Origin: Escherichia coli
Lineage (GTDB): Bacteria > Pseudomonadota > Gammaproteobacteria > Enterobacterales > Enterobacteriaceae
NCBI RefSeq assembly: GCF_009931435.1
Contig: NZ_CP043414.1
Length of the DNA: 64,000 nucleotides
Strand: one strand, 5' to 3'
The notes beneath the pieces were generated by a model. It saw only the letters and a program-made list of their open reading frames with translations. It was not told where the DNA came from and searched no databases. This document shows positions 43,749-47,631 of this stretch, piece after piece. A program made the position numbers and the translations under genes. Every line of letters starts with the position of its first letter. Within the stretch, counting starts at the first letter, position 1.

Positions 43749-44104
43749 GTAAATTTAGGAGTAATCCTGGAACTTTTTTTGTCGCCCAGCCAATGCTTTC
43801 AGTCGTGACTAATATTCCTTGCGAAGTCTTGTCTGAAGCGGTTTCCGCGATTTTCTTCTGTAAATTGTCGCTGACAAAAAAGATTAAACGTACCTTATAC
43901 AAGACTTTTTTTTCATATGCCTGACGGAGTTCACACTTGTAAGTTTTCAACTACGTTGTAGACTTTACATCGCCAGGGGTGCTCGGCATAAGCCGAAGAT
44001 ATCGGTAGAGTTAATATTGAGCAGATCCCCCGGTGAAGGATTTAACCGTGTTATCTCGTTGGAGATATTCATGGCGTATTTTGGATGATAACGAGGCGCA
44101 AAAA

Positions 44105-45157
44105 ATGAAAAAGACAGCTATCGCGATTGCAGTGGCACTGGCTGGTTTCGCTACCGTAGCGCAGGCCGCTCCGAAAGATAACACCTGGTACACTGGTGCT
44201 AAACTGGGCTGGTCCCAGTACCATGACACTGGTTTCATCAACAACAATGGTCCGACCCACGAAAACCAACTGGGTGCAGGTGCTTTTGGTGGTTACCAGG
44301 TTAACCCGTATGTTGGCTTTGAAATGGGTTACGACTGGTTAGGTCGTATGCCGTACAAAGGCGACAACATCAATGGCGCATATAAAGCTCAGGGCGTTCA
44401 ACTGACCGCCAAACTGGGTTACCCAATCACTGACGATCTGGACATCTACACTCGTCTGGGTGGTATGGTATGGCGTGCAGACACCAAGGCTAACGTACCT
44501 GGTGGCGCATCCTTTAAAGACCACGATACCGGTGTTTCTCCGGTCTTCGCTGGCGGTGTTGAGTACGCGATCACTCCTGAAATCGCTACCCGTCTGGAAT
44601 ACCAGTGGACCAACAACATCGGTGACGCACACACCATCGGTACTCGTCCGGACAACGGCCTGCTGAGCCTGGGTGTTTCCTACCGTTTCGGTCAGGGCGA
44701 AGCAGCTCCAGTAGTTGCTCCGGCACCAGCTCCGGCACCGGAAGTACAGACCAAGCACTTCACTCTGAAGTCTGACGTTCTGTTCAACTTCAACAAAGCA
44801 ACCCTGAAACCGGAAGGTCAGGCTGCTCTGGATCAGCTGTACAGCCAGCTGAGCAACCTGGATCCGAAAGATGGTTCCGTAGTTGTTCTGGGTTACACTG
44901 ACCGCATCGGTTCTGACGCTTACAACCAGGGTCTGTCCGAGCGTCGTGCTCAGTCCGTTGTTGATTACCTGATCTCTAAAGGTATCCCGGCAGACAAAAT
45001 CTCTGCACGTGGTATGGGTGAATCCAACCCGGTTACTGGCAACACCTGTGACAACGTGAAACAGCGTGCTGCGCTGATCGACTGCCTGGCTCCGGATCGT
45101 CGCGTAGAGATCGAAGTTAAAGGCATCAAAGACGTTGTAACTCAGCCGCAGGCTTAA
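44105..45157 (+). CDS. ompA: Outer membrane protein A (loop-variant allele)
   Basis: [21 protein letters not shown] signal peptide, beta-barrel, APAPAPAP hinge, OmpA-C domain; long 5' UTR upstream. Confidence 0.95.
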
Positions 45158-45173
45158 GTTATCGTCTGATAGA

Positions 45174-45200
45174 AAAACCCCGCAGCTGCGGGGTTTTTTT
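45174..45200 (+). terminator. ompA rho-independent terminator
   Basis: AAAAACCCCGCAGCTGCGGGGTTTTTTT. Confidence 0.8.
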
Positions 45201-45232
45201 CGCCTTGCGTAAATTGAACTGACTCTCGACAG

Positions 45233-45870: not shown

Positions 45871-47631
45871 TTGACCATTACGAAACTTGCATGGCGTGAC
45901 CTGGTTCCTGATACCGATAGCTATCAGGAAATATTTGCTCAGCCACATTTGATTGACGAAAACGATCCTTTATTCAGTGATACTCAACCGCGACTGCAAT
46001 TTGCGCTGGAGCAGTTGCTGCATACGCGAGCATCCTCCTCTTTTATGCTGGCGAAGGCCCCGGAAGAGTCTGAGTATCTGAATCTTATTGCCGATGCCGC
46101 GCGTGCGCTACAAAGCGATGCAGGCCAACTGGTGGGCGGTCACTATGAGGTTTCCGGCCACACCATCCGCTTACGTAACGCAGTGAGTGCAGATGATAAT
46201 TTTGCGACTTTAACGCAAGTTGTCGCTGCCGACTGGGTAGAAGCGGAACAACTCTTTGGCTGCCTGCGCCAGTTTAATGGTGACATTACCCTGCAGCCAG
46301 GTCTGGTGCATCAGGCAAATGGCGGTATTCTCATCATCTCTTTGCGTACACTGCTGGCGCAACCTCTGCTGTGGATGCGGCTGAAAAATATCGTTAACCG
46401 CGAGCGTTTTGACTGGGTTGCGTTTGATGAGTCCCGCCCTCTCCCCGTCTCTGTGCCTTCGATGCCATTGAAGCTGAAAGTCATTCTGGTAGGCGAACGC
46501 GAATCATTAGCTGATTTCCAGGAGATGGAACCAGAGCTTTCAGAGCAGGCTATTTATAGCGAATTTGAAGACACTCTGCAGATTGTCGATGCGGAGTCAG
46601 TAAGCCAGTGGTGTCGCTGGGTGACATTGGCCGCCAGACATAATCACTTACCTGCACCGGGAGCGGATGCCTGGCCGGTACTTATCCGCGAAGCAGCACG
46701 CTACACCGGTGAACAAGAAACACTTCCGCTTAGCCCGCAGTGGATCCTCCGCCAGTGTAAAGAGGTCGCCTCCCTGTGCGATGGCGACACCTTCTCCGGC
46801 GAGCAGCTAAACTTAATGCTGCAGCAGCGTGAATGGCGTGAAGGTTTCCTCGCTGAACGCATGCAGGATGAGATCCTTCAGGAGCAAATCCTGATTGAAA
46901 CCGAAGGCGAACGCATCGGGCAAATTAACGCCCTTTCGGTCATTGAATTTCCGGGTCATCCGCGCGCTTTTGGCGAACCTTCTCGCATTAGCTGCGTTGT
47001 ACATATTGGCGATGGTGAATTCACTGACATCGAACGCAAAGCGGAGCTTGGCGGCAATATCCATGCGAAAGGGATGATGATCATGCAGGCGTTCCTGATG
47101 TCGGAACTTCAGCTTGAGCAACAGATCCCCTTCTCAGCATCGCTGACATTTGAGCAGTCATATAGCGAAGTGGATGGCGATAGTGCCTCAATGGCTGAAC
47201 TCTGCGCCCTGATAAGCGCCCTCGCCGATGTGCCGGTGAATCAGAGTATTGCTATCACAGGTTCAGTCGATCAATTCGGTCGCGCCCAGCCAGTCGGTGG
47301 TTTAAATGAGAAAATCGAAGGCTTCTTTGCTATTTGCCAGCAACGTGAGTTAACGGGGAAACAAGGTGTCATTATCCCCACTGCTAACGTTCGCCATTTA
47401 AGTCTTCACAGTGAACTGGTGAAAGCGGTAGAAGAAGGCAAATTCACCATCTGGGCAGTAGACGATGTGACTGACGCACTGCCGTTATTATTAAATCTGG
47501 TGTGGGATGGCGAAGGCCAAACGACGCTGATGCAAACCATCCAGGAACGTATCGCGCAAGCATCGCAACAGGAAGGACGTCACCGTTTTCCATGGCCATT
47601 ACGTTGGCTGAACTGGTTTATTCCGAACTGA
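45871..47631 (+). CDS. ycbZ: Lon-like protease homologue YcbZ (LonH)
   Basis: 586 aa; conserved position between matP and fabA. Confidence 0.9.

Follow-up and report, generated by a model that had tools for sequence, protein, structure and literature searches.

A long-loop ompA allele of a known OmpA isoform at its native position in an Escherichia coli chromosome

The ompA gene and its surroundings

The DNA analysed here, which we call the window, is a stretch of 64,000 nucleotides from Escherichia coli (contig NZ_CP043414.1 of assembly GCF_009931435.1), and the genes around ompA lie in it in the order yccS-sxy-sulA-ompA-matP-ycbZ-fabA, which is the same in K-12 and in 15 other strains. The features of ompA itself are collected in Table 1. 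We place the start of the gene at the ATG at 44105, on the basis of the annotated K-12 homologue and of a GAGG ribosome-binding site shortly 5' of it; the mechanically called open reading frame begins at a GTG that lies farther 5' than the true ATG. The product matches the NCBIfam equivalog NF008071, "porin OmpA", over its full length (residues 1-350, 676.1 bits against a cutoff of 277), carries the OmpA membrane barrel of Pfam PF01389 at residues 23-199 (E = 1e-79), and matches solved OmpA chains from end to end. An AlphaFold2 model built on a 12-sequence alignment has eight strands at low confidence (mean pLDDT 43), and we use it for strand topology only, the assignment of loops being taken from the solved-structure literature. 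The protein is identical to RefSeq WP_000750415.1, found in strains 2013C-4282 and 100117. In the public protein collection this record, named "MULTISPECIES: porin OmpA [Escherichia]", occurs on at least 1,000 contigs, as does each of the six ompA alleles that we queried there, so that these counts give no ranking of abundance among them.

Table 1. Positions of ompA and its associated features in the window.
Feature	Position	Strand	Description
Promoter-proximal region and 5' UTR of ompA	43891..44104	+	214 nt, including the GAGG ribosome-binding site
ompA coding sequence	44105..45157	+	long-loop (ompA2 / OmpA-long) allele; 351 codons including stop, 350 aa
Signal peptide	44105..44167	+	21 residues, same as K-12
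Loop 1 polymorphic codon, mature residue 25	44240..44242	+	Asn (AAC), as K-12
Loop 2 variable triplet	44363..44371	+	DNI (K-12 SVE); 8 nt changes in 3 codons
Loop 3 variable segment	44489..44521	+	11 residues (K-12 SNVYGKN); same as PDB 9fzd
Extra 12 nt within loop 3	44504-44515	+	encodes GASF
Loop 4 polymorphic codon	44630..44632	+	His, as K-12 (Asn in Liao pattern II)
Codon for mature residue 161	44660..44662	+	Leu (K-12 Met); start of last barrel strand, strand taken from the low-confidence model
Periplasmic peptidoglycan-binding OmpA domain, PF00691	44780..45067	+	residues 226-321, E = 4e-24
Intrinsic terminator hairpin	45172..45201	.	CCCCGC-AGCT-GCGGGG, A run before and T7 run after; between convergent ompA and matP

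Across all eight allele backgrounds that we aligned, the 214 nt of promoter-proximal sequence and 5' UTR show no differences (alignment columns 143-356). Farther upstream, in the sulA-ompA intergenic region, 5-6 positions are unlike most comparators and are shared with strain N96; we considered a regulatory difference here and rejected it, since these changes lie more than 220 nt 5' of the ATG and everything nearer the gene is invariant. At the other end, direct folding confirms the terminator hairpin (dG -20.1 kcal/mol, z -4.4, with 0 of 200 shuffles as stable). A scan for consensus promoters and terminators returned nothing meaningful 5' of ompA, and the same scan missed this hairpin. Because the expression signals, the signal peptide and the protein sequence of the periplasmic domain are all the same as in K-12, we infer that the structural role of OmpA and its expression would stay as they are in K-12, with only the exposed surface altered.

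The window also contains a lambdoid prophage at about 8,000-32,100, with lysis genes, a DNA methyltransferase, a Q antiterminator, RusA, hokD, cro/cI-like regulators, dicB, an exonuclease and a tyrosine integrase. It is inserted directly upstream of yccA, which the integrase at its end adjoins, and because ARAGORN found no tRNA genes in positions 1-64,000 its attachment site is not an intact tRNA gene within the window. The 25-kb prophage stretch is covered to at least 80% in only 3 of 5,426 complete genomes; in the best match, strain SOI121, a 2.5-kb gene for a "hypothetical protein" lies between hokD and the replication/immunity region, and this gene could be the prophage-encoded defence cargo to which the original prediction thought the OmpA loops might be relevant. 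That link we rejected. Upstream of ompA, some 12 kb with around a dozen core genes lie between it and the end of the prophage. The gene is part of a conserved core block, sxy-sulA-ompA-matP, its allele is widespread independently of the prophage, and we found nothing that links the two.

Loop differences from K-12 and the known isoforms

Alignment with the annotated K-12 BW25113 OmpA (WP_000750416.1, 346 aa; OmpA-short, Liao pattern I-alpha, PDB 1BXW, 1QJP and 9FZC) shows that 339 of 346 aligned residues are the same and that the two differ solely (numbering of mature K-12 OmpA) by S66D, V67N and E68I in loop 2, S108A, Y111P, an insertion of GASF and N114D in loop 3, and M161L. The two proteins share their locus, promoter, 5' UTR, signal peptide, periplasmic domain, Asn25 and the loop 4 His, and are set apart by loop 2, by a loop 3 that is four residues shorter in K-12, and by residue 161. 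This bears out the original prediction that extracellular loops differ from the K-12 form: both of the loop strings that it quoted from the window are present, and the strings that it gave for K-12, KGSVENGAYKAQ and ADTKSNVYGKNHDTGV, are correct and agree also with PDB 9fzc. It had further held that the barrel strands and the periplasmic domain are conserved, which is exact for the periplasmic domain and the signal peptide, neither of which changes at the protein level (the DNA of the PF00691 domain is a distinct synonymous haplotype), but the strands carry the conservative M161L, which it overlooked. M/L at this residue is a known polymorphism (Liao 2017 table, PMC5413513).

Six of the seven nonsynonymous codons fall inside 10 loop codons and one in the remaining 336 (Fisher p = 6e-10), and several of the loop codons have two or three bases changed, so that the clustering is not a matter of chance.

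The allele class to which the window gene belongs is already known, common and structurally characterised, and its subtype is minor but catalogued. Two isoforms, OmpA-short and OmpA-long, form the main groups among about 90,000 genomes (PMC12259851), and the window protein has the features of OmpA-long, namely a loop 3 four residues longer than SNVYGKN and DNI, not SVE, in loop 2. The corresponding classes ompA1 and ompA2 were named by Power et al. 2006, who concluded, as related in PMC9560509, that isolates of class ompA2 show reduced sensitivity to lysis by phages. Each of the nanobodies Nb01 and Nb39 binds one isoform only and makes extensive contacts with loop 3 (PMC12259851). In the crystallised complex of OmpA-long with Nb39 (PDB 9FZD; Liao pattern III, ompA2), 173 of 175 aligned barrel residues equal those of the window protein, with no difference in loop 2, loop 3 or the His of loop 4; the crystallised protein has Pro25 and Met161, the window protein Asn25 and Leu161.

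Residue 25 is what defines the subtype. Among other long-loop alleles it is mostly Pro and in some Asp (GAC, one nucleotide from AAC). Since the window protein has Asn25 rather than the Pro25 of Liao patterns II and III, it corresponds to an unnamed minor pattern of Liao 2017 and to neither of those two. This pattern, N / DNI / 11-residue loop 3 / H, was found in 2 of 78 isolates (Liao 2017 Table 3A, PMC5413513): the environmental isolates 110 and 307 match the window in all four loops exactly, and are known there from the loop pattern alone. In the same study a loop 3 of ANVPGGASF occurs in 39.7% of isolates, and DNI accompanies the long loop 3 (PMC5413513). The nearest other protein haplotype is the Asp25 long allele WP_001305912.1 (strains BEC1-S17-ESBL-09 and Ecol_316), which differs only at residue 25; its gene differs from that of the window by 16-17 nt over the whole length and has a different synonymous haplotype in its 3' half. 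The 3' half in the window is a synonymous haplotype common to only a handful of strains.

How common are these forms? With a 69-nt query that spans it, the long loop 3 is found in 38% of complete E. coli genomes (2,062 of 5,426), against about 60% for the short form, and 1,053-bp ompA alleles make up about 40% of evenly sampled matches, in agreement with this figure. Within the allele, only the Asn25 subtype is uncommon: 13 of the 5,426 complete genomes carry the window haplotype at 99.9% identity, a count by DNA identity outside which the same protein on other synonymous backgrounds falls, and in one more, at 99.1%, the encoded loop 3 is another. Plasmids account for five of the ompA matches in the genome collection; on one of these, the 4,668-bp NZ_CP097216.1 of strain BE311, 344 bp are 89.9% identical to ompA nt 199-554 and are annotated "outer membrane beta-barrel protein".

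Receptor specificity and selection on the loops

The part of OmpA that is altered would be the shape and chemistry of about 14 exposed residues that ligands read, and a changed receptor specificity is, we argue from published experiments, the likely consequence of the loop set. The original prediction had pointed to the loops as phage receptors, and experiment agrees that natural loop variants alter infection by some Gp38 phages (PMC12032242). In that study, eight natural ECOR variants of OmpA were expressed in MG1655 delta-ompA, phages with type 1 Gp38 (FL08, AV119) infected all eight, and phages with type 2 Gp38 (FL12, FL18, FL20) were confined to variants 1, 3 and 4, a restriction explained by loop 2a together with loop 3a or 3b. 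For these three variants the text of the study also describes contacts with E89 of loop 2, which is mature E68; it names MG1655 as the host for phage isolation, and relates that classical phage-resistance mutations fall at residues 25, 70, 110 and 154, one per loop (PMC12032242). From its statements on E89 and on the MG1655 host we infer that loops 2a, 3a and 3b of variants 1, 3 and 4 are of the SVE or short, K-12-type class. On that mapping the window allele, which combines a long loop 3 with Ile at mature residue 68, is predicted to confer resistance to phages with type 2 Gp38 and to admit those with type 1, a prediction which draws on isogenic experiments with natural variants other than the exact combination of Asn25, DNI, long loop 3 and Leu161. 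More generally, phage adhesins, antibodies and nanobodies specific for the short form should fail to bind the window strain, and ligands that are specific for the long form or tolerate both should bind its OmpA.

Phages need not be the main agents that keep this loop set. It is possible, though we hold the idea only tentatively, that it is kept mainly by other pressures, such as host immunity (antibody, neutrophil elastase), colicins or the mating proteins of conjugative plasmids. Liao 2022 (PMC9560509) reports allele effects on killing by neutrophil elastase, on surface charge and on biofilm, finds alleles unevenly spread over phylogroups and pathotypes, and counts the roles of colicin receptor and mediator of conjugation among those of OmpA. 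However, nothing in the window separates such pressures, and the clearest all-or-nothing phenotype among isogenic strains is phage infection (PMC12032242). Such pressures are in any case compatible with the account of a long-loop ompA given here and do not exclude it.

We consider it rather unlikely, on the other hand, that the loop differences are without functional consequence for the window strain and are simply inherited with the lineage, with no current selection by ligands, for example because O-antigen masks the protein. The O-antigen does keep bulky probes off OmpA in most clinical strains (PMC12259851), and with such shielding in the window strain the allele may matter little for its phage sensitivity. 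Moreover, attachment does not differ significantly between the commonest patterns I and II (Liao 2017, PMC5413513), and host-range work with Sf6, in which ligands likewise read the OmpA loops, finds in vitro affinities that differ little between loop variants. Against this stand four observations which together argue for a polymorphism visible to selection: the nonsynonymous changes are concentrated in the loops, as described above; synonymous differences from K-12 are also enriched around them (11 of 66 codons, compared with 16 of 284 elsewhere, p = 0.008), as expected of two long-maintained allele classes; the long and short forms both persist in E. coli at the frequencies given above; and isogenic swaps change phage plating and nanobody binding (PMC12032242, PMC12259851).

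Ancestry of the long-loop surface and the mosaic around it

The framing of the window allele as a variant of the K-12 form turns out to be the wrong way round. For an outgroup comparison we took a single genome from each species and searched it with a degenerate pattern for the conserved strand that lies between loop 2 and loop 3, a pattern that also fits K-12-type alleles and thus favours neither form. This recovered 14 genomes, 12 of them from outside E. coli: E. albertii, two cryptic Escherichia, S. enterica subsp. arizonae and diarizonae, six Citrobacter and Intestinirhabdus, with E. fergusonii, E. marmotae and S. enterica subsp. enterica absent from the set. In all 12, loop 3 has 11 or 12 residues and loop 2 reads DNI, or DNV in the case of Intestinirhabdus. 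The exact loop 3 of the window occurs in E. albertii (NBRC 107761), C. sedlakii and two C. amalonaticus genomes, whose loop 2 is DNI as well, and C. sedlakii and the two C. amalonaticus genomes also share Asn25. At the DNA level, the segment from loop 2 to loop 3 differs between the window and C. amalonaticus by 7 synonymous and 0 nonsynonymous codons, with K-12 the outlier over this segment at 14.2%, and the window barrel as a whole is 2.7% from E. albertii and 5.9% from K-12. Because all 12 genomes from outside E. coli have DNI or DNV with a long loop 3, the long-loop surface is, on this comparison of sequences, the ancestral one, and the SVE / SNVYGKN short form of K-12, with its 4-residue deletion, the derived one; that 38% of complete E. 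coli genomes also carry the long form fits the same reversal. The long-loop surface would then be common to other Escherichia, to Citrobacter and, in similar form, to Salmonella, and the K-12 short form would persist in E. coli beside the ancestral long form.

Taken together with the locus, we are highly confident that ompA in the window is a normal single-copy chromosomal gene in its native sxy-sulA-ompA-matP position, encoding the ancestral long-loop isoform, with DNI and a long loop 3, in its less common Asn25 subtype.

Divergence along the region is uneven. Relative to K-12, and with gap positions counted, the barrel half of ompA is 7.2% diverged, the C-terminal half 2.4% and the flanking genes 0.4-2.4%. 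Relative to the nearest complete genome, strain 100117, a block at about 40-46 kb, comprising the 3' end of yccS, sxy, sulA, ompA and matP, is nearly identical (0-7 differences per kb), and 15-32 differences per kb are found at 33-35, 38-40, 46-47 and 51-56 kb. Over the 24 kb from 33,000 to 57,000 none of the complete E. coli genomes is more than 99.0% identical to the window, and this, with the patchy divergence, indicates that the source lineage is poorly represented among complete genomes and strongly mosaic here. The neighbouring ycbZ, a Lon-like AAA ATPase gene (45,871-47,631), is 1.2-2.0% from every comparator, including strains with a near-identical ompA block, which implies a recombination breakpoint between matP and ycbZ. 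The gene travels within some 6 kb of DNA that a few other strains have in nearly identical form and that more diverged sequence borders on either side, which is the usual recombination mosaic of E. coli.

One could go further and suppose that Asn25 on a long-loop surface, found by DNA in those 13 genomes and within a block of about 6 kb in otherwise diverged strains, confers a receptor specificity of its own and is maybe spreading by recombination under phage pressure. We regard this as quite doubtful; if it were true, the Asn25 long allele might escape both the ligands that need Pro25 with a long loop 3 and those that need short loops.

That ompA came in recently from a foreign genus, Citrobacter for example, or from E. 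albertii is very improbable, and whole-gene distances lead us to reject a foreign genus as the source. For an import speak the protein sequences of loops 1-3, which equal those of C. amalonaticus and C. sedlakii, the loop-3 DNA, which is 1/42 nt from E. albertii and from C. amalonaticus alike, and the block around ompA, which differs in ancestry from its flanks. Over its whole length, however, the gene is 6.9-7.9% from complete Citrobacter genes (6.9-7.7% for C. amalonaticus and C. sedlakii), with E. albertii at 3.0%, and for these three species the divergence falls mostly on synonymous sites. Only 0.1% separates it from 13 E. coli genomes, and 2-3% from other long alleles of that species. Moreover, 38% of E. 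coli genomes have long alleles, with E. coli-like flanks, and the block matches other E. coli strains and no other species.

Thus the ancestral long-loop reading chiefly corrects a perspective. The textbook OmpA of K-12 is the derived short-loop form, as judged by the outgroup comparison, and it is the window strain and about 38% of complete genomes that would carry the ancestral surface. Knowing the OmpA isoform of a strain helps to predict how it is recognised by OmpA-dependent phages (for instance T-even phages with type 2 Gp38), by nanobodies and by antibodies and, as is all already published, such prediction is useful in phage-therapy matching and in diagnostics.
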